DNA of 64,000 bases from positions 48,744 through 112,743 of the forward strand of contig JAXJUM010000042.1 in the NCBI GenBank assembly GCA_036309045.1, written 5' to 3'. The notes under the pieces were generated by a model, which was given only the letters and a program-made list of their open reading frames with translations, ran no database searches and was not told the origin of the DNA. Below, piece after piece: positions 38,374-59,293 of this stretch. How positions within the stretch are numbered: position 1 is the first letter of the stretch; each line of letters begins with the position of its first letter. Source of the stretch: Acutalibacteraceae bacterium. GTDB lineage: Bacteria > Bacillota > Clostridia > Oscillospirales > Acutalibacteraceae. The translations under genes and the position numbers were made by a program.

Positions 38374-38507
38374 CGAGTTTTGATGAGTTTTGTATAATAA
38401 TATCAGTTTATGTTTAAATGCTTTGTACATGATGTCTGTAATTGTAATGTTTTTGTTTTATTAGCCGTCAAAATTGTCGTCACTTGATATTTAGAAAGGA
38501 TGGTAAG

Positions 38508-39623
38508 ATGTCAAGAAAAGGTGAAAATATATACAAAAGGAAAGATGGACGATGGGAAGGAAGGTTTATAAAGAGGTATGAGCCTACTGGGAAAGCCAAA
38601 TATGGGTATGTTTATGCTAGAACATATAGGGATGTAAAGAGCAAATTGGAGGTCGCAAAAACAAATCATTCACGGTTTAACGATACCAACGATGCAACAT
38701 ATTGTGAACTACTTGATAAATGGTTAGCTTGCAAAAAGCGAGAAGTGAAATATTCGTCTTATATAAGATATAAAAATACGATTGAAAATCATATTAAGCC
38801 AGAACTCGGAAATATGAAAGTAAAAAGTATTTCAGCTGAAATACTTCAAGAGTATTTAAAAGTAAAATCTGAAAATGGACGGATTGATAGGACAGGAGGT
38901 TTATCTAACAAGTCTTTATCAGACATTCTAGTAATAATAAAAGAAACACTTAAATTTGGTAATGTGTACGATACAAGCATTATCAATTTAAAAGCCACTG
39001 CTTCGCAAAAGCATAAATCAATGAGAGTATTGAACGAAAAAGAGCAAACTAACTTAACAATAACTTTATTAAACGATACTGATATATACAAAATGGGAGT
39101 TTTGATATGTCTTTATACTGGCATTAGAATAGGTGAACTCTGTGCTTTAAAATGGTCTGATATTTCTTTAGAAAACAAAGTGATTAACATTAATAAAACT
39201 CTACAAAGACTTCCTAACACCAATCCAGAAGCTAATGCAAAAACTACTCTTTTTACATCAGAACCTAAAAGTGACTCTGGAAACAGAATTATCCCAATAC
39301 CGGAATTTCTATATACTATAATTCTCCCCTTTAGGAAACAGGACGAAATGAATGTGATATCTACAGATAAAAAACCTTTGATTGAGCCAAGAACAATGCA
39401 AAACTACTTCAAAAAGTATTTAGCAGAAAGTAATATATCGGATGCTAATTTTCATTCATTAAGGCACACCTTTGCAACGAGGTGCATAGAAGTGGGATTT
39501 GATATAAAAACGCTAAGTGAAATTCTTGGTCATTCTAGTGTAAAAATCACACTAGATAGATATGTTCATTCATCTTTAAATCTAAAAAAGCTAAATATGC
39601 AAAAACTAAAATTTGCAATCTAA
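38508..39623 (+). CDS. Tyrosine recombinase (phage-integrase family) inside the invertible segment
   Basis: N-terminus MSRKGENIYKRKDGRWEGRF, plus C-terminal HSLRHTFATR and LGHSSVKITLDRYVH catalytic motifs. Confidence 0.85.
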   Translation: MSRKGENIYKRKDGRWEGRFIKRYEPTGKAKYGYVYARTYRDVKSKLEVAKTNHSRFNDTNDATYCELLDKWLACKKREVKYSSYIRYKNTIENHIKPELGNMKVKSISAEILQEYLKVKSENGRIDRTGGLSNKSLSDILVIIKETLKFGNVYDTSIINLKATASQKHKSMRVLNEKEQTNLTITLLNDTDIYKMGVLICLYTGIRIGELCALKWSDISLENKVININKTLQRLPNTNPEANAKTTLFTSEPKSDSGNRIIPIPEFLYTIILPFRKQDEMNVISTDKKPLIEPRTMQNYFKKYLAESNISDANFHSLRHTFATRCIEVGFDIKTLSEILGHSSVKITLDRYVHSSLNLKKLNMQKLKFAI

Positions 39624-39647
39624 TAGCCGTCAAAAATATAGTCAACG

Positions 39648-39688
39648 AAGCAACAACTCCTCTATAAATGCTGAGTTGTTGCTTTTTC
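39648..39688 (+). terminator. Rho-independent terminator after the recombinase gene
   Basis: 11-bp perfect stem AGCAACAACTC/GAGTTGTTGCT followed by TTTTT, abutting the right repeat. Confidence 0.7.
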
Positions 39689-39711
39689 GTCAAGGGGAAT
39701 ACTCTACGAAA
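39686..39711. repeat. Right 26-bp inverted repeat
   Basis: TTCGTCAAGGGGAATACTCTACGAAA, the partner of 38291-38316. Confidence 0.8.
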
Positions 39712-39732
39712 ATAATGTGAAGGAAAAATCAA

Positions 39733-40074
39733 ATGGACAATACTGGCAGAAAAAATTATATGAATTATTGGAATTTTTCTAAAGAAGAAAAAAATCAACT
39801 GATTGCACACCTAACAAAAGAACTTCCCACATTAAGGGGAGCCGCTAAAGCTACCCAGGATGAAATTGCGAATATAATTGGAGTATCCCGACAAACATAC
39901 AATGCAATTGAAATGCAAAAAAGAAAAATGAGTTGGAATACATATATGTCATTGATATTGTTTTTCGATTATAATCCCAATACGCATTATACAATTAGAC
40001 AATTGGATGTTTTTCCATATCAGTTAGATGAGTGCTGGCTGTCAGGTAAACTTGAACAGTATAACGGAGAATAA
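39733..40074 (+). CDS. HTH (XRE-like) regulator, first gene of the large locus
   Basis: Product carries ATQDEIANIIGVSRQTYNAIEMQKR. Confidence 0.6.
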   Translation: MDNTGRKNYMNYWNFSKEEKNQLIAHLTKELPTLRGAAKATQDEIANIIGVSRQTYNAIEMQKRKMSWNTYMSLILFFDYNPNTHYTIRQLDVFPYQLDECWLSGKLEQYNGE

Positions 40075-41110: not shown

Positions 41111-42223
41111 GTGAATAAAGAAAAAAACACTTTTAGAAGCAATGATGCTTTTCCGCAATCAGTGAATAATCAGTTTTGGAACGATCTTAGAAAACAGGCT
41201 GCTAATAATTATATACCAATACATGGTCATTTTGAAATTACTCCTCGATGTAATCTGAATTGTAAGATGTGTTACGTACATTTGAATAATACTCAGATGG
41301 GTAAACTAAATGAATTACCATTTTTAAAATGGAAAGAAATCGTGGACCAAGCTATTCACATGGGAATGCTTTTTGCATCAATTTCAGGGGGAGAATGTTT
41401 AACTAGTCCATATTTTGATGAACTATATTTGTATTTGAAATCTAAAGGAATTATTGTCTTTGTTTTAACAAATGGAGTTTTGCTAGATAAAAAAATATCA
41501 TTGTTTGAAAAATATCCGCCTGCATTGATTCAGGTTTCTGTGTATGGTTATGATAAAGCTAGTTATATAGCGGTTACTGAAAAAGATGAATATGATAATG
41601 TTTCAAACTCTATCGAAAAAGCACATAAATTAGGATTGCCTATTAGTGTAGCTGTTACTGCAAGTAGATATTTACCATCTGTTTATGAAATAGTTAAAAA
41701 GTATTATGAAATCGGCATCGGTGTTACTGTAAATAGATGGATAATGCCTCCATACGAATCTACAGGTAGAAAATTTGGTGATATAAATCTATCTCCTGAT
41801 GAGCAGGTTAATATTTCAAAAGAAATACTTCAAGCAACAGAACAAGAATTAATACCTTGTCCAGTTGAACCTCTGCCAAAACCAATTATGTTTTTGAAAG
41901 ACAGAGCACCTAAAAAAGGATTACTTTGTGCTGCTGGAAGAAGTGATTTTAGTATAAATTGGAAAGGAGAAATGAGCTTATGTGTTTCTTTAAATACTCC
42001 TACAGGATACCCTTTGATAGATGGTTTTAAAAAAGCTTGGGAACAAACTGTAATAGCAAGTAAGGAATTCTTAATGCCAGTTGAGTGTTATGAGTGTAAA
42101 TACTTAAAAGTATGCAATCGCTGTCCGGCACAACATTTAATAAATAATCTACCCGGACATTGTAATCCAGCGGTGTGTGAAGAAGGCATACTGATGGTTA
42201 AAAACGGATTAGTTTCTTTATAA
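41111..42223 (+). CDS. Radical SAM enzyme with C-terminal SPASM-like Cys cluster
   Basis: CNLNCKMC (CxxxCxxC) at about 41249-41272, and a C-terminal CYECKYLKVCNRCPAQ. Confidence 0.8.
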   Translation: MNKEKNTFRSNDAFPQSVNNQFWNDLRKQAANNYIPIHGHFEITPRCNLNCKMCYVHLNNTQMGKLNELPFLKWKEIVDQAIHMGMLFASISGGECLTSPYFDELYLYLKSKGIIVFVLTNGVLLDKKISLFEKYPPALIQVSVYGYDKASYIAVTEKDEYDNVSNSIEKAHKLGLPISVAVTASRYLPSVYEIVKKYYEIGIGVTVNRWIMPPYESTGRKFGDINLSPDEQVNISKEILQATEQELIPCPVEPLPKPIMFLKDRAPKKGLLCAAGRSDFSINWKGEMSLCVSLNTPTGYPLIDGFKKAWEQTVIASKEFLMPVECYECKYLKVCNRCPAQHLINNLPGHCNPAVCEEGILMVKNGLVSL

Positions 42224-42237
42224 AGGAGGTGTAAATT

Positions 42238-42354
42238 ATGTATGAAAAGCCTGTAGCTATCAAAGTGGATTTTACTTACGAGATAGCTTTCGCAAAGAAA
42301 TGTCACTTTGCAGATTACGGAGAGTGCTCTCCAAGTGAACAGCAGTATAAATGA
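42238..42354 (+). CDS. 38-aa candidate RiPP precursor peptide
   Basis: AAAGGAGG lies 8 nt upstream. Product MYEKPVAIKVDFTYEIAFAKKCHFADYGECSPSEQQYK. Followed by a hairpin. Below the ORF-track cutoff. Confidence 0.5.
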   Translation: MYEKPVAIKVDFTYEIAFAKKCHFADYGECSPSEQQYK

Positions 42355-42371
42355 TTGCTAAGTTAAAAAAT

Positions 42372-42401
42372 GAGCGGCAAACGCTCGTTAGTTTGTCGCT
42401 C
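42372..42401 (+). terminator. Hairpin (attenuator or partial terminator) after the precursor ORF
   Basis: 11-bp stem GAGCGGCAAAC/GTTTGTCGCTC (one G-U pair), 8-nt loop and a weak T-tract. Confidence 0.45.
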
Positions 42402-42423
42402 ACATTTTTAGGAGAGTTTGAGT

Positions 42424-42702
42424 ATGTGTAAATATTTCAATAGTGAAAATTATATTTGCAGACAATTAGTAGATAATATTTTACTTTTTCCTGTAAGTCA
42501 GGAAGTGAGTGACTTTCAGGGAGGCGTAATTTTAAATAGAGTATCCCATTTTGTGTGGAAGTTATTATCTGTTCCTTGTACAAAAGATGAGATTGTGAAT
42601 GCTGTATCTCAGGAGTTTAATGCGGATATAGCTATGGTAGAAACAGATATTGAAGAACTTTTAAACAGTTTTATAGAAATGAAAATTGTTAAAGTTGAAT
42701 AA
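42424..42702 (+). CDS. PqqD-family (RRE-type) peptide chaperone
   Basis: Product carries ILNRVSHFVWKLLSVPCTKDEIVNAVSQEFNADIAMVETDIEELLNSFIEMKIV. Confidence 0.65.
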   Translation: MCKYFNSENYICRQLVDNILLFPVSQEVSDFQGGVILNRVSHFVWKLLSVPCTKDEIVNAVSQEFNADIAMVETDIEELLNSFIEMKIVKVE

Positions 42703-44500: not shown

Positions 44501-45046
44501 ATGGCTTATTATTGGTATCAAAGCGACCCACAGCTGTACCAAATGGAAGTTGCAGCTATGAGGAAGTTTTTTCCATCATTCACCATAAATCAGCTCCAAG
44601 ATGGTTCAGGAAGATTGTACTGGAGAGGTAAAGTTCAACCTACAGGAGAAGGTGGTATGGTTTGGGATTTGATGTTGATTTACAAAAACACACATCCTAG
44701 AGCAGAAGGTTATGGTGGCTCTATCCAAATACTTCCTCTGCAACCTAGATTAAAAGATTTAGCTGACAATATAATGCCATCGATTCTGCAACAATATAAT
44801 AACAATATGGATACTTTGTATGCCAAAGGGTTGCAGTTAGGTCTTCCTCATGTATATCATGATAAGTTTGGACGTAATGAAGAATATTTTATTTGTAGTG
44901 CAGATCCTAAGTTTTTTAAAGCGGGACAAAATCAGTCTACTTCAGCAGCTTCAGCTTTGAGTTGGGCTTGCAAATGGATTATTCTTTGTGAGATGTGGTT
45001 GAATGGTGAAATCGGCGATGATGTCGCTTTAGAAGGTAACTATTAA
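44501..45046 (+). CDS. Prokaryotic E2 (UBC-fold)-like protein
   Basis: 181 aa. LPHVYHDKFGRNEEYFICSADP mirrors the HPN...C catalytic arrangement of E2s. Gene context is E2-JAB-E1. Confidence 0.55.
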   Translation: MAYYWYQSDPQLYQMEVAAMRKFFPSFTINQLQDGSGRLYWRGKVQPTGEGGMVWDLMLIYKNTHPRAEGYGGSIQILPLQPRLKDLADNIMPSILQQYNNNMDTLYAKGLQLGLPHVYHDKFGRNEEYFICSADPKFFKAGQNQSTSAASALSWACKWIILCEMWLNGEIGDDVALEGNY

Positions 45047-45047
45047 A

Positions 45048-46133
45048 ATGATTATACCTCCAAACTCTCTTGCAAAGCTAAAGGGAGTTTGGAGGTTTTG
45101 TTATAGGCTGGAGGTTTATCAAATGAGAGTAGTTTTTTCAAACAGAGCATACGCTTCTGTTTTAGCTGAAACAACTGAAAAGATTAAAACGGAAACCGGT
45201 GGTTTGTTTTTAGGAACGGTGCAGGATGATACTTGGTATATTATTGAAGCCATAGACCCCGGCCCAAAGTCAATTTTTCAAGTTGCATATTTTGAATATG
45301 ATCAAAAATATACCCAACACCTAATTAATAAAATTGCGAATCTGTATGATAGTCGACTGTCCTTAATTGGTTTATGGCATCGTCATCCCGGATCATTTGA
45401 TCAATTTTCATCAACAGATGATGGTACTAATGCTCAATATGCATCTATGAGAGAGGAAGGTGCAATTTCAGCTTTAGTAAACATTGATCCAAGTTTTAGA
45501 ATTACGATGTATCAGGTCGAAAGACCTTGCCGTTATAGAAAGATAGCATATGATGTTGGCGATAACCTTATTCCTGATAAGTTTTTGAGATTCAAAACAC
45601 CAGAAAGATATTATTCCATTATGAATAATATTCTTTATCCATCTACAACTGGAGGAGACGTGAATGACGGATACCACAAATCAGTTAGTTTGGCATCTTT
45701 TATGAAATTTATTCTGCCACAGATGAAAGATGACGAATGTACAGATGTTGAAACAAACAATTTACTTGGCGATGAATCTACACAAGAACAGCTTATTGAT
45801 GAAATTGTGGATGATTTGACATTTATGGCGGATACAATTGGTATTGAAACCGCTATGTCGCTTGATAACAATTACCTTACTGTTTATCAAGAAGCAATAG
45901 ATAAAACAACAAAGCTGTATTTTATGCTTTCCATTGTTAAACACGATATTATTCTTTCCTATGAAAATAAGTGCTACATATATCGCAAAGGATTATTTAT
46001 GGAAGCTTTCGGGAAAGCAAAAGCTGAGCAAGATAGAAAAGATAATAGTGAAAACAGAACAAAACATAGAAAAAAAGCAGGAGTCATTGATTCCGTTATT
46101 AAAATAATTAGATTTAACAGAAACGAGGAATAG
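45048..46133 (+). CDS. JAB/MPN (JAMM) metallopeptidase-domain protein
   Basis: Product carries AETTEK...GLWHRHPGSFDQFSSTD (E, HxH, S, D). An alternative start at 45123 follows GGAGG. Confidence 0.75.
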   Translation: MIIPPNSLAKLKGVWRFCYRLEVYQMRVVFSNRAYASVLAETTEKIKTETGGLFLGTVQDDTWYIIEAIDPGPKSIFQVAYFEYDQKYTQHLINKIANLYDSRLSLIGLWHRHPGSFDQFSSTDDGTNAQYASMREEGAISALVNIDPSFRITMYQVERPCRYRKIAYDVGDNLIPDKFLRFKTPERYYSIMNNILYPSTTGGDVNDGYHKSVSLASFMKFILPQMKDDECTDVETNNLLGDESTQEQLIDEIVDDLTFMADTIGIETAMSLDNNYLTVYQEAIDKTTKLYFMLSIVKHDIILSYENKCYIYRKGLFMEAFGKAKAEQDRKDNSENRTKHRKKAGVIDSVIKIIRFNRNEE

Positions 46134-46137: not shown

Positions 46138-47292
46138 ATGGGAATAAAAAGACCTAAAAATTTCTTCGGTGAGGATATACCGCTTACAGTTTTTATATCC
46201 GAAGAACAGCTCCACAATAGAGAGTGCGTAAAAGTTTTTGGTAAGTATTTTGAAGATACAGGAATTTTCAATGTGCTACCTTCTGAATTATTTGACAAAG
46301 GTAAATATCTGGGTGATGTTCTTCCTGAAGGTAGCTCACCTGCCGAAGACGGCTTCTGCGGTATAATTACCGAAGAGGGTATTGATTTTTATTGGAGTGG
46401 CGAAAAGATCGTAACCGAGTCTTATGGACTTTACCAAAGTATTTTTTCGAGAAATAAGGGGATTCTTGAAACCGATGTTATGAAGAAAAAATGTGCCGTA
46501 ATTATAGGTTGCGGTTCTGTTGGTAGCTTGGTTGCAATGGAATTAGCAAGAGCAGGCGTTGAAAAATATGTGCTGTGTGATGCGGATACTCTTGAGTACC
46601 ACAATGTGTGTCGTCATCAGTGCGGCATTGAGGATGTTGGAGATCTCAAAGTAAATGCACTTAAAAGAAAAATTCTTAATATCAATCCAAAAGCGAATGT
46701 AAAGACTTTTGGAGGTATCATTCAGAATATCCCTAAAGAAATTCTTGATGAAATGTGTACTCCATTTGAAACAATCTTTGTTGGTTGTGGAGATAATCGT
46801 GCGGCTGATGTTTACGCTAACAAAATTGCTGTTTATTTTGATGCTGCATTTATTTCGATTGGCTTTTGGGAAAGAGCTTATGCAGGAGAAATCTTCTACC
46901 ACATTCCCTATAAAAATATGCCGTGCTACCAGTGTGCATTAGGTAGCGGAGATATGTCAGGTCGTGTTGAGGCAAATCACCACGTTTATTCCAACCAAGA
47001 GAACATTGAAAATCTGAAATTCGAACCCGGCATTTCTGTTGATATAAACTTTATTACAAGCGTTGGTATTAAATTGATAATTGATATTCTTAATTCAACA
47101 AATGAAGGATATATTCCTCGCTTGCTTAATAACTTGAAACAGTACACCCTCATTTGTAATACGAGCGATCCTGCCATCGGTGGAGAAATGGTTGAAATCT
47201 TTAGCTATCCGTTACAAGTAACCACTTCACTCGTAGTTGGCTTCGGAAAAGACTGTAACGGTGAGTGCAATTATGAATTGGAAGAAAAGTAA
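46138..47292 (+). CDS. E1-like (ThiF/MoeB/HesA family) adenylating enzyme
   Basis: Product carries VIIGCGSVGSLVAMELARAGV...LCDADTLEYHNVCRHQ and a CYQC zinc motif. Confidence 0.75.
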   Translation: MGIKRPKNFFGEDIPLTVFISEEQLHNRECVKVFGKYFEDTGIFNVLPSELFDKGKYLGDVLPEGSSPAEDGFCGIITEEGIDFYWSGEKIVTESYGLYQSIFSRNKGILETDVMKKKCAVIIGCGSVGSLVAMELARAGVEKYVLCDADTLEYHNVCRHQCGIEDVGDLKVNALKRKILNINPKANVKTFGGIIQNIPKEILDEMCTPFETIFVGCGDNRAADVYANKIAVYFDAAFISIGFWERAYAGEIFYHIPYKNMPCYQCALGSGDMSGRVEANHHVYSNQENIENLKFEPGISVDINFITSVGIKLIIDILNSTNEGYIPRLLNNLKQYTLICNTSDPAIGGEMVEIFSYPLQVTTSLVVGFGKDCNGECNYELEEK

Positions 47293-47319: not shown

Positions 47320-50300
47320 ATGAAGGCTTTAGCTCAAAGCGAAATAATTGCTTTGATTACCGACTTAAATGCATTTGCTGATAGTGCTGAAGCTTTAATC
47401 AACACTACACGGATAAACTATGATAAGGACAAAAGATTGCTTCAAAACAGACACAGTAGTGTCTTATCAAATTTAGATAGTACCTACAAAGCAAACTGTT
47501 CCTCGGTACAAAGCAAATCAAAGCAGACTATTGCTGACGCAAAAAAAATACTCGCTGAAACCAACAAGCTGGACGAAAAGCTCTCAAGCGTAGACAAATA
47601 TTATGTTAAAACCAAAAAGAAAAAAGAGAAACTTTTGTCAGATACCACAAGTGCTGCTTATGATGATGCAACGGACTATTTCAAAACGCTTAGCAAAATA
47701 AAAGATAGTTTCAAGGTTCTTTATAAGAAATATTCCGAGGATATTCTTCCCGGTCTTATTAACGGCTTAAATTATTTATTCTCGAGTCAACGAAAAAAAG
47801 ACTATGAAGAATTAATTATCTTGAGAAATACAGTAGCTGCTTTTGTCAAAGAGATTGAGGAAATGCTACCACAATTAACCGAAGAGAACCTTGCAACCCT
47901 GAAAGAAGATTACTTTACTCAGCGTGGTAGTATGATTGAGCGACAGAAAAACGAAGTTGCAAATTTTGAGAGTAACCATTCTGCAACATTAGATAAAGTG
48001 GCAGATAAGATTTGCACAGAACTCGATAATGTACTTCCTGATGAGTTTGTAGATTACTTGAGTGCAATTATGGCGAACTATGCGAAAGTTGTTCACAAAG
48101 TGAATGCTTCAAATGAAATTCAAGATGAAGTGTTGAATATGTGCTATGTGGATTATCCAGTAGACTTTTTTGTGCAATCTAAGATTGTTGCATCCATCAT
48201 AAAGGAAAAATGTTCAAAGCTATTAGTGAATGGTTCAATTAGACTGCCTGTTATGATGTCTACAAGAAACGCACCTGTTTGGATGATTGCAAACGACAAC
48301 AGTAATAGTTCTATGGTACAAGCGTTTACTCACTCCATTATGTACGGGCTGCTTTCTTCTTGCCCGGTTGAAAAGTTGACCTTTACCATTGTCGATCCTG
48401 AGAACCGTGGCAACAGCATATCACCTTTCTTTGATGCGAAGAAAAAACTTCCTGAACTGTTTGGCGAAAGAATTTACATAAGTAAAGACGAGGTTGCCGC
48501 CAAAGTCAGCAAACTGAATGAAAAAATTGAGAATATTCTTCAAGATAGGCTCGGCAACCAATATGATACCATTTTTGACTATGCAAAGAGTACGCCTGAT
48601 TATAACCTCAATGTCGAGTTTATTATGCTCTATGATTTTCCAAGAGGTTTTGATGAGCGTACCCTTGCTGAACTCAGAAATGTTTTACGCAACGGAAGTA
48701 TGTGTGGAATCTACACGGTAATTTCCTATTTGCCTGAACCTGATAATACTCGTTCAAGAGAATATCAGCAGAACTTACAGTCTATCATTGACCTTTCGAC
48801 TGTAATAAATCAAAATGGTGAAAACTTTGTATTACGTGGACTTCCTCTCGTTTATTACACAATGCCTGAAAAGATTGAATTTGCTAAATTCTTTAGTAAA
48901 TATATGCTTATTTTTGAAGGTATTAAGAATCGTGGTATTGCCTTCTCCCCACTTATCAGAAAGCTCATCGAAGCAAAAGACTCTATGGAGCTTGATGCTC
49001 ACATCGAGCAGATCTGCGAGATGATGAAGAACTACGAAAAAACTTATGCACAAGTACCGGAAATCAAATCCGTGTTCCCTTCATTGGTTACATTAGGAAA
49101 TGTTCTGTATCCTGCTGATGTGTTCTCTGACAGTATCGGCTATAAGCACATTATTGATAAGTTTGGCACTGAACGCAGAGCTGGAACAGAAAACACTTCT
49201 TTTGTTGAATTGCCGCTTACCTTTGACTTGCGAAATTCTTTCAATTTGTTCTTGAATTGTCCTGAAGCAAGCAGTAAAGGAATGCTCGACTTTACACATC
49301 ACGTCATTTGGAGCTTTCTTTCCTTTATGCCTGTCACAAAGGTAAATGTATGTGTATTTGATAGTGAGCAACGAGGAAATAGTATTATTCCTTTCCTTGA
49401 TTTCCGCAAACGCTCACCTGAAACCTTTGATCAGAAGATTTATACAAGTCAGGAACAAATGTATGACCGTCTGCAAAAAATCAACGCTCAGATTGACGAG
49501 TTCATACAAGAAAAATTAGGCAATAGATATAAAGATATTCTTGACTATAACTTAAACACACCGAATAGAGCTGAACCCGTTACACTCTTGGTATTATATG
49601 ATTTCCCAAGTGGAATGGATGGAAGAAGCATTGATTTGTTGAAAAACATCTTGAGAAACGGTAATAAGTGTGGTGTATTCACTTTGATCTGCTACAATCC
49701 AAATATCACATTCTCCCGTTATGAAAGCATTGATGAGCGATTGGAACAGATTTCAAGATATTGTGCATCTATTGATTATAAACATGGGCATTATAGTCTA
49801 TTACCTTATAATTTGCAAATTAACACACCTGAGTTGCTTTCTTACAATGCGACTGATGTGTTTATCGCAGATTATATTGAAAAGAGCGAAACAATTAAGA
49901 AACAAGGACTCTCCTTTAAGGATATTATTTCTAAGGATTTGTTCTCACTTGATTCCTCTAAGTCAATGAAGATACCCGTTGGTGTTGGTGACGGAGATAG
50001 CATCGTCAACATCACTATTGGTGAAGGTTCATCCCATCACGGTCTTATTGCAGGTGCTACCGGTTCAGGTAAATCCACGCTGCTCCATACCCTTATTATG
50101 AGTAGTATGCTTCATTACAGTCCTGACCAACTCCATTTGTATCTTATGGACTTTAAGAGTGGTACTGAATTTAAGATTTACGAATCGGTTAAGCTCCCTC
50201 ACATCCAACTTCTTGCGTTGGATGCCATGCAGGAGTTCGGTGAGAGTATTCTTGAAAACCTTGTAACCGAGATGGAAGCAAGAGCCAAAGCTTTTAAAGA

Positions 50301-51711
50301 AGATGCTGGCGGTGTGTCCAAAATTAAGGATTATATTAAAGTTACCGGAAATCCCATGCCCCGCATCATGGTCATTATGGATGAATTCCAGATACTTTTT
50401 AACGATTCTACTAATAGAAAGGTTGCTAATCGTTGTGCAGAATTAGCAAAGCGTATTGTTACGGAGGGCCGTTCTTTTGGCATTCATCTTTTTATGGCAA
50501 CACAGTCCACAAGAATTATATCTGACCTGACTTTGTCTTCTGGTACAATCGAGCAAATGCGTATTCGTGTCGGCTTAAAATGCGGCGAGAATGATGCAAG
50601 ATATTTGTTCTCGGATCAAAACGACACAAAGGCATTGGCAATGATGAAGGGACCTATCGGTACTGCTGTTATGAACTTAGACTATACCGAACAGTCCAAT
50701 ATCGGATTCAGAGCTGCATACTGTGACGATGCAACACAAAAGTATTATCTTGATTTAATCAGTAAGACCTATGCAGAACAACCGTCTACCTTGCAGACCT
50801 TTGAAGGTAGCAGAACAACTAACTTGGTTGATTATTTTGCGGATGCAAATATCGGTGCAACATCTGAGCTTCCGGCACAAATTCATATGGGTACACTCAT
50901 AAAAGTTGCTCCGCCTTTCGCAATTTGTATCGACAAGAAAAAGAAACACAACCTTTTGGTTTGTGGTTCTAATGAAAGAATGGCTAATACCATTTCTAAT
51001 AACTATATGATTTCGGCCTTGCTTAATCGCAATGCAACCGTCTACTGTATTGACGGCGACAAACTTGTTGGTGATGATGGCTCGGCAGATTTCTATGATG
51101 CTCTTGGTGAGTGTAGCAGCACTCAGTTCAAAGTTGCTCAGGATCGTGCTGATATTATCAAGTTCATCAATGAGATTTATCAAAGTTATCAGACTTGGAA
51201 GAAGCAGAATAGTGATGATGTAATTTTCGTAGTAATCAAGAACCTTCAATTCTTGGATATTGTTAAGTCGATGTTCAAGGGAGATGTAATTGATGAAAGC
51301 GAGTTTATTGATGAAGTTTCTGCTGAACCTGAGTTTAACCCTGCCGATCCGTTTGCAGCAGTAAACAATATGTTTGCAAACAGAGGTAGTGACGATAATA
51401 TGTCGGTTGGTGAAAAACTCATAAAGATGATTGAAGATGGTTCGGGATTTGGTATTCACTTTGTGGTTACATCACTTGAATATCAATCTGTAAGAGAATG
51501 TATGTACTACGGTGAAAATATCCTCACAAAATTCCCTGAACGTATCATCTTTTCTCTTGGATCTAACGATGCTGATAATCTTATTGAAAACGTTTCGGTT
51601 GCAGGCTTGAGAGATAATACGGTTTACTTCACGGATGGAGTTAAAAACACATTCCAAATGAAACCGTATATTACACCTTCTGCAAATGAATTGAAGAAAC
51701 TGTTTGATTAA
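47320..51711 (+). CDS. FtsK/SpoIIIE-family (EssC/EccC-like) multi-domain ATPase without recognisable TM or FHA regions
   Basis: There is one canonical module (GATGSGKST at about 50053, VIMDEFQ, GIHLFMATQS). Two upstream modules and one downstream module have degenerate P-loops. The N-terminus is coiled-coil. Confidence 0.8.
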   Translation: MKALAQSEIIALITDLNAFADSAEALINTTRINYDKDKRLLQNRHSSVLSNLDSTYKANCSSVQSKSKQTIADAKKILAETNKLDEKLSSVDKYYVKTKKKKEKLLSDTTSAAYDDATDYFKTLSKIKDSFKVLYKKYSEDILPGLINGLNYLFSSQRKKDYEELIILRNTVAAFVKEIEEMLPQLTEENLATLKEDYFTQRGSMIERQKNEVANFESNHSATLDKVADKICTELDNVLPDEFVDYLSAIMANYAKVVHKVNASNEIQDEVLNMCYVDYPVDFFVQSKIVASIIKEKCSKLLVNGSIRLPVMMSTRNAPVWMIANDNSNSSMVQAFTHSIMYGLLSSCPVEKLTFTIVDPENRGNSISPFFDAKKKLPELFGERIYISKDEVAAKVSKLNEKIENILQDRLGNQYDTIFDYAKSTPDYNLNVEFIMLYDFPRGFDERTLAELRNVLRNGSMCGIYTVISYLPEPDNTRSREYQQNLQSIIDLSTVINQNGENFVLRGLPLVYYTMPEKIEFAKFFSKYMLIFEGIKNRGIAFSPLIRKLIEAKDSMELDAHIEQICEMMKNYEKTYAQVPEIKSVFPSLVTLGNVLYPADVFSDSIGYKHIIDKFGTERRAGTENTSFVELPLTFDLRNSFNLFLNCPEASSKGMLDFTHHVIWSFLSFMPVTKVNVCVFDSEQRGNSIIPFLDFRKRSPETFDQKIYTSQEQMYDRLQKINAQIDEFIQEKLGNRYKDILDYNLNTPNRAEPVTLLVLYDFPSGMDGRSIDLLKNILRNGNKCGVFTLICYNPNITFSRYESIDERLEQISRYCASIDYKHGHYSLLPYNLQINTPELLSYNATDVFIADYIEKSETIKKQGLSFKDIISKDLFSLDSSKSMKIPVGVGDGDSIVNITIGEGSSHHGLIAGATGSGKSTLLHTLIMSSMLHYSPDQLHLYLMDFKSGTEFKIYESVKLPHIQLLALDAMQEFGESILENLVTEMEARAKAFKEDAGGVSKIKDYIKVTGNPMPRIMVIMDEFQILFNDSTNRKVANRCAELAKRIVTEGRSFGIHLFMATQSTRIISDLTLSSGTIEQMRIRVGLKCGENDARYLFSDQNDTKALAMMKGPIGTAVMNLDYTEQSNIGFRAAYCDDATQKYYLDLISKTYAEQPSTLQTFEGSRTTNLVDYFADANIGATSELPAQIHMGTLIKVAPPFAICIDKKKKHNLLVCGSNERMANTISNNYMISALLNRNATVYCIDGDKLVGDDGSADFYDALGECSSTQFKVAQDRADIIKFINEIYQSYQTWKKQNSDDVIFVVIKNLQFLDIVKSMFKGDVIDESEFIDEVSAEPEFNPADPFAAVNNMFANRGSDDNMSVGEKLIKMIEDGSGFGIHFVVTSLEYQSVRECMYYGENILTKFPERIIFSLGSNDADNLIENVSVAGLRDNTVYFTDGVKNTFQMKPYITPSANELKKLFD

Positions 51712-52585: not shown

Positions 52586-53512
52586 ATGGAATTAGTATGT
52601 TTATTATTAACCGTTTTCGGTTTAATTATTTGTTTTGGCGGTATTTATATTAGAAAATTCTGTTCTTCCATTATGGGTTTAGTGTGGGGAGCTTTCCTTT
52701 CTATTATTCTTATTGTTTTGACTACGGAATCAATATGGCAAATTGATAGCGAGGAATCGTTAGTATGGATTGTAATTGGAGCAATTACACTTGCTATCTT
52801 TTCTGCAATATATGAGAAAGCGTGTGCTTTTCTGAATAGCTTTATACCGACATTTTTTATTGTATGTGTATTATTGCTATTCAACATTCTTTCAAATGAA
52901 GATCTTGAGATATCAGCAGTGGTTATCATTGCTCTAATCGTAGCTTTTATCTCAGGCTTTATTAGTTATAAGATTTACGACATTGCTTTTATGCTCGAAA
53001 CGGCTTTTACAGGAGCGTTTATAGCTTCATTGGGTATATATGGTCTTACAGAAGGAGCAAACGATGTTGGTGATGTGGTTTTCGGCGCAGTAATGGATGA
53101 CGAAGTTATAGGTTATATATTGCTTGGTACTGTTGTTTTAGGCATTATCGGTTTTTGCGTTCAATGGGGCAGATTTAAGACTATCAAGGAAGAAAAAAAC
53201 TTGGAAGATAAAAAAGATACTTCCACTACAGATGGTTGGCAATGCCAATGCGGTAAGTTAAATTCTTTCGAGCATCAATTCTGTGAAGAATGTGGTAAGC
53301 AATTTATTGAACCTGATTTCTCCCAAAAATCTTGGAACTGCAAGTGCGGAGCTTCCAATGCAGACGAGATGTTATTCTGCTCTGAGTGTGGAGCAAATCG
53401 CCTGCAGCAAGAATATTCTAAATGGATATGTTCAACTTGTGGAACAGAAAATGAACACGATATGCTCTATTGCTCTGAGTGTGGCAAGGTTTCCGGAGGT
53501 AAAAAGCAATGA
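52586..53512 (+). CDS. Polytopic membrane protein with three C-terminal RanBP2-type zinc-ribbon repeats
   Basis: About 6-7 TM helices, followed by WQCQCGKLNSFEHQFCEECG, WNCKCGASNADEMLFCSECG and WICSTCGTENEHDMLYCSECG. Confidence 0.65.
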   Translation: MELVCLLLTVFGLIICFGGIYIRKFCSSIMGLVWGAFLSIILIVLTTESIWQIDSEESLVWIVIGAITLAIFSAIYEKACAFLNSFIPTFFIVCVLLLFNILSNEDLEISAVVIIALIVAFISGFISYKIYDIAFMLETAFTGAFIASLGIYGLTEGANDVGDVVFGAVMDDEVIGYILLGTVVLGIIGFCVQWGRFKTIKEEKNLEDKKDTSTTDGWQCQCGKLNSFEHQFCEECGKQFIEPDFSQKSWNCKCGASNADEMLFCSECGANRLQQEYSKWICSTCGTENEHDMLYCSECGKVSGGKKQ

Positions 53513-53787
53513 TTATTGATGGACATAAATCCATAGAAGAACTACAAGAATTGCGATATAACTATCACAAAGATATTGCACAGTTAGAAGAAATGCATTC
53601 TCGACTTAGAGAAAGATATTCAAAACTTTCTGAAATCAATGATAATAGGCACATCTATGAACTTTTGGAACTAACTGTCGATAGCTTAAGAAGTGTCGAA
53701 GAAGCATTACATAAACTACACGAAGCAGATGCAGGTGCCGAGAAACTGATCGAACTTTATCAGGCATACTTAAAGGTTGAACTATAA
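53509..53787 (+). CDS. Small helical protein (hypothetical; possible secretion chaperone or adaptor)
   Basis: 92 aa, start overlaps the upstream stop (ATGA), predicted all-helical. Confidence 0.5.
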   Translation: MIIDGHKSIEELQELRYNYHKDIAQLEEMHSRLRERYSKLSEINDNRHIYELLELTVDSLRSVEEALHKLHEADAGAEKLIELYQAYLKVEL

Positions 53788-53814
53788 TTGATTTTTTGCA
53801 AAGGAGGGATTTGC

Positions 53815-54789
53815 GTGGGAATGGTAAATGCCGATGTTACTGAGTTGTTGCAATCTTGGAATAATATCAAGACAGCAATTACAAGCATCGAAACGACAAG
53901 ATCGTCAATGACAAGAAAATATCAACAACTTAATGGCGAATGGAAAGATAAAAAGTATAAAGAATTAGGCGATGTTGTTCAAGAATGCAGCAAAGCGTTA
54001 AATGAAATATTGAAAATCTTATCCAAAGGCGAAAAATTCATTGGTTCACTTGCAAAAAACTTGCAAGAGTATGAGGAAGTTAATCTTGATAATCGGTTTG
54101 GTAGTTCATATAGCGGCTCTTATTCAGTATCAAGCGAAACGAATTCTACAAACTCCGTTCACAGTGCGATAGCGTCACAAGGACTTACACATACCCGACA
54201 AGAAACCACAAATGTGTTCTTAAATGGAAGAAATTGTACCGTATTTGACCACCCGTTTGACGAAAATTCAGGACGAATTTGCAATCAAGGAAGTGCATAT
54301 CCAACAGGACCACAAAACACTTGCGGTTGTTGTTCAAGTGGCACAATTATAAACAAAGCAGGTGGTAACACCAATGAACACGATATGGTCGCATTTGCTT
54401 GGAATAATGGGTTTTGTGATAATGATGGTTTTACAACAGCAAACACAATAACGGACATCCTAACAACTTCGGGTATTCCTTCAACAAATACCAGCGGCAC
54501 TAGCTTGGAAAATCTTGCTTCCTATGTAGAACAAGGTCGTGGTGTTATTATTGCGGTAAATGCAAGACGTTTTGATCCGGACTTGTATAGGCAATCAGGA
54601 GGACACGCCATAGTTTTGGAAAGCGTTATTAGGGATGCTCAAACACACGAAATATTAGAGTACGTTGTGGTTGACTCAAACAGAGAAAATTCGGTTAATG
54701 CTGCAAGACGAGTTTCTGTACAAAGATTAGAAAGAGCATTTGGAGATTTGGGAAACCAATCAATCTCTACTAACAACATTATTTGGTAG
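53815..54789 (+). CDS. Polymorphic-toxin-like protein: W-K-D-x-K-Y N-domain + papain-like Cys peptidase-like C-domain
   Basis: GTG start 6 nt after AAGGAGGG (an ATG at 53821 is also possible). The N-domain is nearly identical to that of 55304. The C-domain has NTCGCCSSG, GGHAIVLE and VVDSN in Cys/His/Asp order. Confidence 0.6.
   Translation: MGMVNADVTELLQSWNNIKTAITSIETTRSSMTRKYQQLNGEWKDKKYKELGDVVQECSKALNEILKILSKGEKFIGSLAKNLQEYEEVNLDNRFGSSYSGSYSVSSETNSTNSVHSAIASQGLTHTRQETTNVFLNGRNCTVFDHPFDENSGRICNQGSAYPTGPQNTCGCCSSGTIINKAGGNTNEHDMVAFAWNNGFCDNDGFTTANTITDILTTSGIPSTNTSGTSLENLASYVEQGRGVIIAVNARRFDPDLYRQSGGHAIVLESVIRDAQTHEILEYVVVDSNRENSVNAARRVSVQRLERAFGDLGNQSISTNNIIW
53823..54058. repeat. Direct repeat copy A (shared toxin N-terminal domain)
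   Basis: Manual alignment to 55312-55547 gives 9 mismatches over 236 nt with no gaps. Confidence 0.85.
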
Positions 54790-54797
54790 GTGCAGTG

Positions 54798-55271
54798 ATG
54801 AATATTAACGATAAATTTAGCAAAGTTTTGTCATCAATAGAATTTCAATTAGCAAGATCATTACCAATATTTAATGATGGTAACGAAATACTTTTCTTCT
54901 ATAAGACTGATGAAATAAACAAAACAGAATATAGAGTATCCGAAGTACGATATGTTGTTTTCAGAAATATTGATAATGGGCATATAGAAGTTATAAAAGC
55001 AGTCGATGCTCTTCCAAAGGAATTGATAGATGCACTTGTTGAAAGTACGAATATGCATATATTAAGTGTCGAGCAAGAACTGAAAAATGAAGATGATTAT
55101 TTAGAACTATATGAAAAAATAACGGAAGAATATTGTACCAAAAACTACAGTGCTTCTGAATTGCAAACACTTTCAGCGTTATTTTTGAAATTAACAGAAG
55201 GAACGAGCCTTCTCCCACTATATAGATATTTGGGCAAAGAATTTTTCGAACTGATTTCTTTGGATATATGA
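54798..55271 (+). CDS. Putative cognate immunity protein 1
   Basis: About 158-aa acidic protein that overlaps the toxin stop. No motif recognised; the call is positional. Confidence 0.45.
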   Translation: MNINDKFSKVLSSIEFQLARSLPIFNDGNEILFFYKTDEINKTEYRVSEVRYVVFRNIDNGHIEVIKAVDALPKELIDALVESTNMHILSVEQELKNEDDYLELYEKITEEYCTKNYSASELQTLSALFLKLTEGTSLLPLYRYLGKEFFELISLDI

Positions 55272-55303
55272 GAAATATCATCGCTTAAAGGAGGTGTAAG
55301 CTA

Positions 55304-56356
55304 TTGAGTTTGGTAAATGCCGATGTTACCGAGCTATTGCAATCTTGGAATAATATCAAGACGGCAATTACAAGTATCGAAACGACAAGATCGTCAATGG
55401 CAAGAAAATATCAACAACTTAATGGCGAATGGAAAGATAAAAAGTATAAAGAATTAGGCGATGTTGTTCAAGAATGTAGCAAAGCCTTAAATGAAATATT
55501 GAAAATCTTATCCAAAGGCGAAAAATTCATAGGTTCACTTGCAAAAAGTTTGCAGGAATATGATAATGTTAACTTAGATGGAAGTATGGGCGCAGATAAT
55601 GCCTTTGTTCAAAACCTGAGAAATATGACATATTCCGCAGGTGAAACACCTTCCTATCAGTATTGTCTTGGCGTGTTGACAAGGGGTAATATTCCTGAAG
55701 GTTATCTCAATGTAATATCTGAAAGACACCAAAACGGTGAAACGGGAGTACGCAGAGTATTCGATCATTTTACAAATCAAATGTTGATACAAGATGCGAA
55801 TTATCCACCTAACCAAACGGCACATTACTCACCGATGAATTATGAGGGACATCGTAGGGGTGTTTATTACAATGCAACTTCGGATATGACTAATCCGAGA
55901 GGTGCAGGAACTACATATTTTCACGAGCTTGCACATATGATCGACCACGCATCAACGGGTTATCAAGGGAACTTGTCAAATACACCTGAATTTGGAAATG
56001 CGTTAATGCAAGACGGTCAACGAATATTGCAATTATATAACAATCTGCCCCCTGAACAGCAGAACGCTTTTTTAACACGCATACGGTCTGACTCAGCTCA
56101 TTCTTTTTCAGACTTGATAGATGCAACAACTAACGGGCAATTACACGGAAGTTACGGTCACTCAAGAGAATATTGGACTCGTTCCGGTAATCTACAAGCC
56201 GAAGCATTTGCACACTTTTTTGAAGCATCTATGGGTAGTGAGGAAAAGCTTGAAATGCTTGCAAACTTTTTCCCAACTGCATTTGGCGTGTTTTCAACAC
56301 TTATTGAATCAATCCAACCCGACCAATATGTTCGGGTATTAGAAAGGAGCAGATAA
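55304..56356 (+). CDS. Polymorphic-toxin-like protein: W-K-D-x-K-Y N-domain + HExxH zinc metallopeptidase-like C-domain
   Basis: TTG start 8 nt after AAAGGAGG. The motif TYFHELAHMIDH is at about 55918-55950. Confidence 0.6.
   Translation: MSLVNADVTELLQSWNNIKTAITSIETTRSSMARKYQQLNGEWKDKKYKELGDVVQECSKALNEILKILSKGEKFIGSLAKSLQEYDNVNLDGSMGADNAFVQNLRNMTYSAGETPSYQYCLGVLTRGNIPEGYLNVISERHQNGETGVRRVFDHFTNQMLIQDANYPPNQTAHYSPMNYEGHRRGVYYNATSDMTNPRGAGTTYFHELAHMIDHASTGYQGNLSNTPEFGNALMQDGQRILQLYNNLPPEQQNAFLTRIRSDSAHSFSDLIDATTNGQLHGSYGHSREYWTRSGNLQAEAFAHFFEASMGSEEKLEMLANFFPTAFGVFSTLIESIQPDQYVRVLERSR
55312..55547. repeat. Direct repeat copy B (shared toxin N-terminal domain)
   Basis: The partner of 53823-54058. 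Confidence 0.85.
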
Positions 56357-56918: not shown

Positions 56919-57800
56919 ATGGATATATGGCATAAATTAGGAAGAATATTTAGAATCTCAAATTTAGGCACGTTAATATTTTTCTTGTTAAATATAGGAC
57001 TAATATTAGCTTTATTCTGTCCCTATGGCATTACCTTTGAAGCGGCAGCTCCTTTGGTTGTTTGTTACATAGTTACAGTTTTAATTAGTTTATCACCAAT
57101 CGGAGAATGGACTCTTGCTGCTCTTGCGGGAGCAAAGGAAATCAAGCGTAAAGATATTAAAATTCGTTTGATACCGTTGTTAGAGATTGTATTTGAACAA
57201 GCAAAAGCAAGAACTCCATATATGGTTAATTCCATTCGCTTAAAGATAATTCACGACCAGTCGCCAAATGCTTTTGCGATAGGTCGAAGAACTATATGCG
57301 TTACAGATGGCTTGCTCAATCTCTCTGACGAAGAAATAATGGCAGTGTTTGCCCACGAAGTAGGTCATCTTGCATACCAGCATTCAGCGATACAACTATT
57401 AATAGGCGGTGGCAATGTATTTATCTCTGGATGTTTATTAATAATTAAGGGTATATGCTGGTTGATTACTGGCTTGTTTACCGTGATTGGGTTAGCATCA
57501 AGAAGCTGTGCTGTTGGTTTTTTAGTAATGATTGTTGGTGGTTTTTCATCTGCTTTAATTTGGTTATGGACTAAATTTTGTATGATTTTTTTAATGTGGT
57601 CTATGCGACAAAATGAATTTGTTGCAGACGAGTATGCGTATAGGCTAGGATATGGTACAATATTAGCAAGTGTGTTAGATAGACATATGTGTACCGTGCC
57701 TGAAAACGGATTGTTGAGAGCGTTATACTCCACGCATCCTTATAGTGATGATCGTGTGGCAAGGTTACAAAATTTAGGAGCAAATTATAGTAGGTATTAA
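56919..57800 (+). CDS. M48-family (HtpX-like) membrane zinc metalloprotease
   Basis: Multiple TM helices, an AHEVGHL (HExxH) motif and a distal THPYSDDR. Confidence 0.7.
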   Translation: MDIWHKLGRIFRISNLGTLIFFLLNIGLILALFCPYGITFEAAAPLVVCYIVTVLISLSPIGEWTLAALAGAKEIKRKDIKIRLIPLLEIVFEQAKARTPYMVNSIRLKIIHDQSPNAFAIGRRTICVTDGLLNLSDEEIMAVFAHEVGHLAYQHSAIQLLIGGGNVFISGCLLIIKGICWLITGLFTVIGLASRSCAVGFLVMIVGGFSSALIWLWTKFCMIFLMWSMRQNEFVADEYAYRLGYGTILASVLDRHMCTVPENGLLRALYSTHPYSDDRVARLQNLGANYSRY

Positions 57801-57988
57801 ACTAAAAAACACTTAAATTACTGGTTGTTTGTCTTATTTTTTGGAAAGATATTTAGATATGATATCAATAGAATGAGAAATAGAAGCGTTGTATATAAGA
57901 GTGCGAATAGTTTAATAGAACAAAAAGGTCAAAATTTCATAAAAACATATTGCGTTTTTATTGTATTTGATGTATTTGATTTAATCAC

Positions 57989-58018
57989 TTGACAGTTGAA
58001 TAAAGTTTATGTTACAAT
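57989..58018 (+). promoter_or_regulatory. Promoter TTGACA-18 nt-TACAAT upstream of the ImmA-like regulatory module
   Basis: The -10 overlaps the left arm of a 12-bp perfect inverted repeat (58017-58028 and 58046-57). Confidence 0.5.
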
Positions 58019-58062
58019 CTTGTTGCTATCGAACAGATGTTCTAGTAGCAACAAGATTTTTT
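58017..58062 (+). terminator. 12-bp perfect inverted repeat + T-run (terminator of the upstream locus and/or operator)
   Basis: ATCTTGTTGCTA, 17 nt, TAGCAACAAGAT, then TTTTT. Confidence 0.5.
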
Positions 58063-58132
58063 ATGTACATAAAATTTAAAAGACGAATAAGTGTTGAGGA
58101 AAAATTAGGAACACAATTAGGAGGAATGGTAG

Positions 58133-58858: not shown

Positions 58859-58859
58859 A

Positions 58860-59105
58860 ATGGCAAAGATAAATATTCGAGAACGAAATCCTGAACACTA
58901 TGCAAAGGTTAAGGTAGAGCAAGAAGCCTTAATTAAAAAATGTTCAGCACAACTAGGGATAGCCAGACTGTGCCCTTATTGTGAACATAAAGTATCTATT
59001 GTTTTGAGGGGCGAACACAGTTACTCTAAAGAGAAATGCCCTAACTGCGGAGAGAACGTGATTTTTCCGCCAATATCTTTTAGATTAGCTCATAACGTGA
59101 GTTAA
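58860..59105 (+). CDS. Small zinc-ribbon protein
   Basis: CPYCEH...CPNCG motifs, with a GAAGGAGGA RBS. Confidence 0.55.
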   Translation: MAKINIRERNPEHYAKVKVEQEALIKKCSAQLGIARLCPYCEHKVSIVLRGEHSYSKEKCPNCGENVIFPPISFRLAHNVS

Positions 59106-59293
59106 TACATATAAAATTAAATAAAAATAAAACAAGCTTTGTGCTTTGGAGCCGCTTGATGCGTTGACTTCCTATATGCCACTTGATTTAGAATTTATTC
59201 CCTTATAGGGAAATTCTATTTCGTGGCATCGTCAACACATCAAGTGGCTCATTTTTTTGTTTTCCATCAGCGGTTTCAGGAAAGGAACTACTG

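Follow-up and report, generated by a model that had tools for sequence, protein, structure and literature searches.

A stretch of 64,000 nucleotides from an Acutalibacteraceae bacterium (assembly GCA_036309045.1, contig JAXJUM010000042.1, positions 48,744 to 112,743; referred to below as the window) encodes a soluble ATPase that resembles EssC and EccC, the motors of type VII secretion systems (T7SS). Type VII systems are the main export route of Gram-positive bacteria for WXG100 proteins and antibacterial toxins. The ATPase consists of a long N-terminal coiled-coil hairpin followed by four tandem P-loop folds of the FtsK/EssC type, of which only the third, equivalent to domain D1 of EccC, is predicted to be able to hydrolyse ATP. 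We favour, with a probability of about 0.6, the reading that this protein would be a cytoplasmic motor, docked on a separate membrane component, which drives the export of WXG100-type proteins and polymorphic toxins by a mobile T7SS-like system and is regulated by a ubiquitin-like module encoded in the same cassette; secretion is what we infer. The most interesting aspect of the locus is the conserved coupling of the motor to a ubiquitin-like conjugation set that, judged by its sequences, appears functional.

The open reading frame proposed in the initial annotation, which had been made from the sequence alone, exists as described there (1463 amino acids; aa), and its modules are listed in Table 1. 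A motif scan found exactly one Walker A motif, GATGSGKST (aa 912-920, nt 50053-50079), and one Walker B motif of the hhhhDE type, VIMDEFQ (aa 1018-1024, nt 50371-50391), both in module 3, which the annotation had singled out as the only canonical one. Each of the 115 full-length homologues retrieved contains G....GK[ST] exactly once, and a single Walker A is also found throughout the wider relatives. The sole Pfam match of substance is FtsK_SpoIIIE at aa 882-1063 (1.2e-26). All five regions of the protein are conserved, with a mean identity to the window ATPase of 68-84% per region across the family.

Modules 1 and 2, proposed earlier to be internal paralogues lacking GK[ST], share 33% identity across 252 aa (E 2e-48), with a probability of 100% in a profile-profile comparison. 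Their characteristic peptides, PVEKLTF...GIYTVISY (nt 48364-48729) and PVTKVNV...GVFTLICY (nt 49330-49695), were found where they had been placed, as was VCGSNERMA (nt 50959-50985), which stands in place of a P-loop in the proposed fourth module. When hhalign was run with the close family only (at least 64% identity), no signal was obtained for module 1, 2 or 4 against module 3. A wider family was gathered with aa 290-880 against 1.84 billion representative proteins, and 1576 clusters were obtained at E <= 1e-3. Once these distant relatives were included, the degenerate-module profile matched the canonical-module profile with 94% probability (E 1.3e-7) and in register, NDNSNSS being paired with GATGSGKS, MLYDFP with VIMDEF, and GSMCGIYTVISY with GRSFGIHLFMATQ; the degenerate modules have NDNSNSS instead of the P-loop and YDFP instead of hhhhDE. 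Module 4 likewise matched the canonical profile with 98% probability (E 2.5e-13), GSNERMA being aligned with the P-loop and GFGIHFVVTS with GRSFGIHLFMATQ. Domain parsing with AlphaFold2, which the annotation had suggested, gave four alpha/beta units in the model of aa 290-1463, at a predicted local distance difference test score (pLDDT) of 79.8.

A coiled-coil N-terminus had been read from the sequence, and the AlphaFold2 model of the N-terminal 310 residues agrees with it. Helices cover residues 6-91, 93-106, 120-147, 155-238 and 241-257, and the two of about 85 residues each, 6-91 and 155-238, pair as a long antiparallel coiled coil (pLDDT 88). No specific structural relative of this stalk was found in the PDB, where only generic coiled coils such as the dynein stalk and SMC were matched. 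The annotation had further noted that transmembrane (TM) helices are absent, a point for which a check had been set beforehand. A Kyte-Doolittle scan found no TM segment in the 1463 residues, the highest 19-residue mean, 1.57, belonging to a beta strand within a P-loop fold; at least four TM segments were detected in the membrane proteins encoded nearby, which served as the positive control. The same test found none in about 60 soluble relatives. The absence of an FHA-like N-terminus was borne out as well, by the all-helical coiled coil found there and by the lack of any Pfam FHA match at E up to 1.

The likeness to EssC and EccC, on which the annotation had based its name for the protein, was confirmed by several comparisons, and these two motors give the best matches in hidden Markov model (HMM), PDB-sequence and Foldseek searches. 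The EssC model TIGR03928 matched with 1.2e-39 and EccCa with 1.6e-33, against 9.5e-8 for FtsK. Compared with the individual EccC domains, the active module scored 61 bits with D1, 27 with D2 and 13 with D3. In Foldseek the best match of the aa 290-1463 model was EccC 4nh0, its three-domain cytoplasmic part (E 2e-29, 952 aligned columns), followed by D2-D3 fragments of EccC and EssC and then by FtsK (5e-13) and TcpA (2e-10).

The same comparisons bear on whether the protein could instead be a DNA translocase, that is, a motor like FtsK/SpoIIIE, TcpA or TraB serving conjugation or segregation of the carrier element. Homologues are labelled 'cell division protein FtsK' by NCBI, the gene adjoins a conjugative element, and conjugative FtsK-like proteins are not split from the T7SS clade with bootstrap support in the neighbour-joining tree described below. 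The records of distant relatives carry uninformative names, either 'FtsK/SpoIIIE domain-containing' or 'hypothetical'. FtsK/SpoIIIE and TcpA do share the P-loop fold of module 3, but they are single motors with membrane anchors and, in FtsK, a gamma DNA-binding domain, all of which are absent from the ATPase (no gamma domain or other Pfam match lies beyond aa 882-1063). Their match scores are far weaker, the FtsK model NF007615 reaching 30 bits against a cut-off of 1566, and the structure fits multi-domain EccC far better than FtsK or TcpA. DNA transfer does not need the ATPase, since the conjugative element itself supplies a VirD4-type coupling protein and VirB4, besides relaxases. Elsewhere the cassette travels without conjugation genes and always with WXG-like genes. 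A role as coupling protein of the neighbouring conjugative element was rejected on the two grounds of that element's own VirD4 and VirB4 and of the cassette's occurrence without it, and a role as DNA translocase is very unlikely.

The initial annotation had also seen an inverted domain logic in the order of the modules. This part of it did not survive, as the active module aligns to D1 and a degenerate domain ahead of it is normal in membrane-bound relatives. The wider family comprises soluble proteins of about 1450 aa with two degenerate modules ahead of the active one, soluble proteins of about 1100-1160 aa with one, and proteins of about 1230-1550 aa that have TM segments in the N-terminal 100-310 residues, one degenerate module and the active module. 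EccC itself has four nucleotide-binding domains, the first being a degenerate 'DUF' domain ahead of D1 (PMC11217815). Module 2 is equated with this mycobacterial domain by position and through the TM-bearing relatives, not by direct sequence similarity, and a comparison of the degenerate-module profile with PDB sequences gave marginal matches only (E ~0.06, to segments of EccC5 and DptH). Since the TM-bearing relatives hold their degenerate module at the position of the EccC 'DUF' domain, degenerate-before-active is the ancestral order; degenerate-active-degenerate is the normal order of the family, and there is no inversion.

The window ATPase thus shares with EccC (T7SSa) and with EssC and YukB (T7SSb) the tandem FtsK/SpoIIIE-type folds and the degenerate domain preceding a catalytic D1. 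What is unusual in it is that the pre-domain is doubled, that only one domain instead of two follows D1, that nucleotide motifs are gone outside D1, and that the stalk takes the place of a membrane anchor. In EccC, by contrast, D2 and D3 keep their nucleotide sites, whereas all three non-D1 modules here are without a Walker A motif; TM helices are missing, as are FHA domains, of which EssC has two at its N-terminus, and the long coiled coil stands in their stead.

The phylogeny that the annotation had put forward as a check was built for the active module as a neighbour-joining tree with bootstrap, from a reference set without T7SSb EssC. The active module falls in a soluble clade (99% support), which stands beside a clade of TM-bearing, WXG-associated proteins, then EccC D1, with FtsK outermost. 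The tree is rough and its deep nodes are weak, but it does not group the active module with FtsK. Within it, the single-module protein P0151 nests among two-module proteins, and the single-module proteins differ, some resembling module 1 and others module 2; the copy number of the degenerate module has therefore changed more than once.

The genes from 38.5 kb onward, from the integrase through the M48 peptidase, lie on one strand. As the annotation had pointed out, the ATPase gene sits among genes for WXG-like proteins bearing W-K-D-x-K-Y. This turn is common to the small WXG-like proteins and to the N-domains of the toxins, and Y-x-x-V-x-[LF] forms the C-terminal end of most of these proteins and domains. 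The Pfam WXG100 model matches the proteins starting at 43050, 53788 and 55304. Toxin 1 combines a WXG-like N-domain with a C39-like peptidase, and toxin 2 a WXG-like N-domain with an HExxH peptidase, the WXG100-like portion being the first ~95 residues in both. In related loci the C-domains are swapped on one N-domain, and an HExxH peptidase, a papain-like domain, an ADP-ribosyltransferase (Pfam 2.6e-32) or a DGRHR domain is found. As with EccC and EssC, genes for WXG100-type proteins accompany that of the ATPase, as do genes for toxins whose N-terminal targeting domains are helical. A WXG100-like N-domain joined to exchangeable toxin domains is a signature of exported polymorphic toxins (PMC3482391).

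Conservation of the cassette was surveyed with one genome per species, which gave 17 loci, 15 of them full-length enough to judge. The carriers, metagenome-assembled genomes or isolates, belong to Oscillospiraceae, Acutalibacteraceae, Faecalibacterium, Butyricicoccus, Lachnospiraceae, Acetatifactor, Ruminiclostridium and Congzhengia. Between families, identity reaches 93-95%, which points to horizontal spread in recent times. The genes for E2, JAB, E1 and ATPase stand in the same order in all 15 loci, and those for s75, the coiled-coil protein, WXGa, WXGb, the B-box TM protein and s57 are present in every locus that reaches far enough upstream. Most of the 15 continue with toxins having WXG N-domains and with the M48 peptidase; several start with the integrase and helix-turn-helix gene. 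The zinc-ribbon membrane proteins (51789, 52586), to which the annotation had assigned the tethering of the ATPase, recur in only one of the 15 (L007); they were rejected as core tethers and are accessory. The B-box protein at 43339 is the conserved one, being the only membrane protein kept by the ubiquitin-linked loci, close and distant. A contig from a human faecal virome, labelled 'UNVERIFIED: Bacteriophage sp.' (L037; MT836827.1, 1-10411), carries an E1, a 1423-aa ATPase of the family (44-49% identity), a toxin and an integrase. No phage genes were recognised across its 10 kb, and it was not taken as evidence of a phage origin.

The association with ubiquitin-like genes extends beyond the close family. 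Three distant soluble relatives, P0169, P0147 and P0209 (24-47% identity in the degenerate region), are encoded beside E2-CBASS, JAB and ThiF genes, CBASS being the cyclic-oligonucleotide-based anti-phage signalling system. In these loci a small protein ending in PEGKLA precedes the three genes, WXG-like genes lie nearby, and two of the three have the B-box TM protein. Radical SAM genes, too, turn up repeatedly in the vicinity of the cassette's distant relatives (L022, 18442-21249; L023, 14008-15270).

In PADLOC, the E1, E2 and JAB proteins of the window match the CBASS type II models E1-E2, E2 and JAB, and their catalytic residues (the E2 cysteine, E...HxH...S..D of the JAB peptidase, and the nucleotide and cysteine motifs of E1) are invariant in relatives at 37-80% identity. 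In this they resemble Cap2 (E1-E2) and Cap3 (JAB) of CBASS type II and the Bil and Bub operons, with which the module also shares a small protein with a conserved, sometimes extended C-terminus directly upstream of E2. The 57-aa protein is strongly conserved (AARRRALAEALRxGEPVVVTxxGEV..., with the invariant PEGKLA end), and some orthologues extend two to three residues further, with KED, RED, GED or NS. Such a pattern would fit the precursor of a modifier that is trimmed by JAB and activated at its new C-terminus. B-boxes, as in TRIM proteins, have a RING-related fold, and an E3-like role of the B-box membrane protein is therefore conceivable by analogy; it could be an E3-like or a channel component. 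The module differs from CBASS, Bil and Bub in its separate E1 and E2 proteins and in being embedded in a WXG100/FtsK-like cassette, and no CD-NTase, CBASS-type effector or beta-grasp ubiquitin-like protein was detected with it.

Given these matches, the main rival to an export system is an intracellular conflict or anti-phage system, in which an invader would be sensed or answered by the ubiquitin-like module together with the FtsK-like ATPase, itself inactive for the most part, and the WXG-fused enzymes would be abortive-infection effectors acting in the producer. Characterised bacterial E1/E2/JAB operons act in phage defence (PMC11601596), and active and inactive FtsK-like domains are listed in ternary conflict systems (PMC7159879, PMC8195603). 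Proteobacterial and TM-bearing relatives accompany vWA, PP2C, kinase and CARF genes, MazF-, IrrE- and OLD-type genes lie close to the cassette, which is part of a mobile island, and the ATPase is soluble with no obvious channel present. However, swapped toxin domains behind a WXG100-like N-domain point to export (PMC3482391); among the toxin domains is a C3-like ADP-ribosyltransferase 'exoenzyme' domain, and a small gene downstream may confer immunity. The cassette as a whole fits none of the PADLOC system models, and no CD-NTase, CBASS effector or other known sensor or effector was found among nine locus proteins with PADLOC or among the 40-62 kb genes with Pfam. The ATPase itself is closest to T7SS motors by HMM and Foldseek. 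On balance a conflict system is considered unlikely.

The deep conservation of E1, E2, JAB and the small protein beside a soluble ATPase also allows for a role without export, in which the ATPase would be a substrate of the ubiquitin-like module or a proteasome-activator-like unfoldase for proteins to which the 57-aa PEGKLA peptide has been attached, with the WXG proteins as adaptors. The small protein is short and probably not of the beta-grasp type, which would recall Pup-type tags. However, FtsK/HerA-type rings move DNA or secretion substrates and are not known as unfoldases for tagged proteins, the locus of the relative P0196 keeps WXG genes without ubiquitin-like genes, and no protease partner is present except the membrane M48 peptidase. 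Such a role seems very doubtful.

If the ATPase is the motor of an export system, it would probably assemble as a ring like EccC and EssC. Modules 1, 2 and 4 may then form non-catalytic scaffold, regulatory and substrate-recognition layers, with module 4 putatively corresponding to the C-terminal domains by which EccC binds substrates. Cargo, or partners in targeting, would be the WXG-like proteins and the WXG-like N-domains of the toxins, with their Y-x-x-V-x-[LF] tails. Without TM helices of its own, the ATPase would need to dock on a separate membrane component, for which the four-TM B-box protein at 43339 is the best candidate, perhaps by way of the stalk. E1, E2, JAB and the 57-aa PEGKLA protein would constitute a CBASS-type conjugation module regulating assembly or activity of the machine, and may thereby achieve by covalent attachment what YukD/EsaB, which is non-conjugatable, achieves in T7SSb by binding. 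YukD controls T7SSb assembly by binding YukB (Oka et al. 2025, PMC12637312), and in the catalogued systems T7SSa-j every ATPase is membrane-bound and a YukD-like protein that cannot be conjugated occurs in nearly all (Garrett, Higginson and Palmer 2024, PMC11217815).

A bolder version of the regulatory part is more tentative and appears less likely than not. According to it, the cassette would encode a complete minimal ubiquitin-like cascade, with a non-beta-grasp PEGKLA modifier of about 50 aa, E1, E2, a membrane B-box E3 and JAB as maturase and deconjugase, coupled to an anchor-less T7-like motor; through conjugation the ATPase would be recruited to the membrane, or assembled or gated there, or else cargo would be marked for export. 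If true, this would be a covalent counterpart of the unexplained ubiquitin-like component of nearly every type VII system. We know of no explanation of why these systems keep a ubiquitin-like protein that is never conjugated, and the set of E1, E2, JAB and a tail-bearing small protein may be the type VII version in which conjugation really happens. If the motor of a widespread mobile system of gut Clostridia is soluble, either channel and motor are separable or the cassettes do something other than secretion. With its exchangeable toxins, among them an ADP-ribosyltransferase and peptidases, and its transfer between families of Clostridia, the cassette may shape competition in the gut microbiota.

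Several observations weigh against an export motor regulated in this way. Every ATPase of the catalogued T7SS (a-j) is membrane-bound, forming or lining the channel (PMC11217815), and no channel is evident in the cassette beyond the four-TM protein. The HMM scores are far below the family cut-offs, with 135.8 bits against 778.4 for EssC TIGR03928 and 116.4 against 509.15 for EccCa TIGR03924. The deep nodes of the neighbour-joining tree have 25-46% bootstrap, and affiliation with T7SS D1 as opposed to conjugative FtsK-like proteins is not robustly resolved. Coupling to the ubiquitin-like module is not universal, as the soluble relative P0196 (L036) lies on an 8-kb contig without ubiquitin-like genes that keeps the 75-aa, coiled-coil, WXG, WXG and ATPase genes. 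Elsewhere, E1/E2/JAB sets of the same type are known as parts of anti-phage systems (PMC11601596). No YukD/EsaB-like ubiquitin-fold protein was found by Pfam among the locus proteins, small open reading frames and the extensions of JAB and E1 not having been structure-searched. Export by any family member is, finally, something we infer from sequence.

Among described systems, one of the closest is the three-domain YueA-like ATPase of a 'mobile T7SS' (Zhang et al. 2012), which has the degenerate-active-degenerate order, linkage to solo WXG genes and a location on mobile DNA. Compared with this type, the window protein likewise has a single active internal domain, WXG linkage and the context of an integrase and an integrative and conjugative element, but it has four domains, the first degenerate one being duplicated. 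The relatives of about 1100-1160 aa and a Caballeronia plasmid protein fit the three-domain description. The 2012 footnote is silent on E1/E2/JAB, the PEGKLA protein, the B-box membrane protein and the fused toxins. The three-domain relative was thus already on record, while the four-module form linked to E1/E2/JAB was not found described: the combination of WXG100, FtsK-like and E1/E2/JAB genes had no description in the literature searched, many subscription papers lying outside its scope, and JAB, ThiF and soluble ATPases are absent from the text of the T7SSa-j catalogue (PMC11217815). In contrast to T7SSa and T7SSb loci, no EssA, EssB, EsaA, EccB/D/E partner or YukD-like protein was detected in the window cassette.

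T7SSc loci include the ATPase TscC, the vWA protein TscE, the PP2C protein TscF and the kinase TscD (Garrett et al. 2024, PMC11217815). The TM-bearing P0250 and the Caballeronia plasmid protein, which contain the same degenerate module, are encoded within WXG100/vWA/PP2C loci, with a kinase and CARF as well in Caballeronia; in gene set these loci resemble T7SSc. Such loci hold two of the three membrane-bound relatives examined; the gene of one further relative stands alone. The window cassette differs from T7SSc, whose ATPases are described as membrane-bound, in having E1/E2/JAB and no vWA, PP2C or kinase. The Caballeronia locus (L025, plasmid NZ_CP049321.1, 7904-21339 of the locus) contains vWA, WXG100, three hypothetical genes and a 927-aa FtsK-like ATPase with 35% identity in the active module, and in addition a DUF1887 CARF protein, vWA, PP2C, a Ser/Thr kinase and a large AAA protein. 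This WXG/FtsK-like cassette, whose host is Gram-negative, is more suggestive of signalling or conflict.

Table 1. The ATPase and its modules, the genes of its cassette, variant toxins of related loci and the conjugative element (positions in the window unless a related locus is named)
Feature	Position	Strand	Basis or remark
Soluble EssC/EccC-like ATPase, 1463 aa	47320..51711	+	ORF list; FtsK_SpoIIIE, EssC and EccC matches; 251 homologues of ~1460 aa
N-terminal antiparallel coiled-coil stalk, aa 6-257	47335..48090	+	AlphaFold2 pLDDT 88
Module 1, degenerate FtsK-type P-loop fold without Walker A or B, aa 303-556	48226..48987	+	Pairwise and profile comparison
Module 2, degenerate paralogue of module 1, aa 621-880	49180..49959	+	Position of the pre-D1 domain of membrane-bound relatives
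Module 3, sole canonical ATPase module, aa 881-1170	49960..50829	+	Aligns best with EccC D1
Module 4, degenerate C-terminal P-loop fold, aa 1198-1463	50911..51708	+	GSNERMA for P-loop, VIFVVIKN for Walker B
Tyrosine integrase and XRE-type helix-turn-helix gene	38484..40074	+	Ahead of the cassette here and in several other genomes
WXG-like helical protein (s75), 75 aa	40078..40305	+	W-K-D-E-K-Y; core
Soluble coiled-coil protein, 248 aa	40317..41063	+	Core
Radical SAM/SPASM gene and 94-aa ORF	41111-42702	+	Between coiled-coil gene and WXG-like genes
WXG100-like protein (WXGa), 93 aa	42753..43034	+	WKDQKY, C-terminal EYEQVNL; core
WXG100 family protein (WXGb), 89 aa	43050..43319	+	Pfam WXG100 3.5e-5; C-terminal QYNRVKF; core
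Membrane protein with N-terminal B-box zinc finger, 306 aa	43339..44259	+	~4 TM helices; conserved C-terminal NGEIIR-x-F-AA
Candidate modifier (s57), 57 aa	44315..44488	+	Directly upstream of E2; invariant C-terminal PEGKLA
E2-like protein (CBASS-type)	44501..45046	+	PADLOC E2 9e-9; Pfam E2-CBASS in relatives; invariant Cys
JAB/JAMM peptidase	45048..46133	+	Intact E...HxH...S..D
ThiF-type E1 adenylating enzyme	46138..47292	+	
Two zinc-ribbon membrane proteins, 263 and 308 aa	51789..53512	+	Accessory
WXG-like protein of 92 aa; toxin 1; possible immunity protein of 162 aa; toxin 2	53509..56356	+	
M48 membrane metallopeptidase	56919..57800	+	Conserved 3' of toxins in close family
Variant toxin, ADP-ribosyltransferase	L008 13901-14767		
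Variant toxin, DGRHR-motif domain	L007 15762-16625		
Variant toxin, papain-like Cys/His domain	L003 11034-12035		
Conjugative element with Mob_Pre and MobA/VirD2 relaxases, sortase and CHAP hydrolase	1-39623		
VirD4-type coupling protein of conjugative element	22116-23918		
VirB4-like ATPase of conjugative element	30021-32345		

Other genes of the window stand on either side of the cassette. In the region 3' of the toxins (56919-61905, + strand), an IrrE-like M78 peptidase, a sigma-70 region-4-like protein, a MazF/PemK-like toxin and a second tyrosine integrase are encoded beyond the M48 peptidase. The conjugative element contains a large serine recombinase gene (7833-9953, + strand) beside a gene for an aminoglycoside 2''-nucleotidyltransferase (10529-11020, + strand; Pfam 1.8e-60), and the segment 7833-11020 looks like a resistance cassette inside the element. 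A 2109-aa protein encoded at 1328-7657 (+ strand) joins MutS domain I to an Eco57I-type methyltransferase region and an SNF2/ResIII helicase region. On the opposite strand, positions 25273-28989 encode an OLD-family ATPase/TOPRIM nuclease and a C5 cytosine methylase fused to a helix-turn-helix domain, in a low-GC patch with reversed GC skew.

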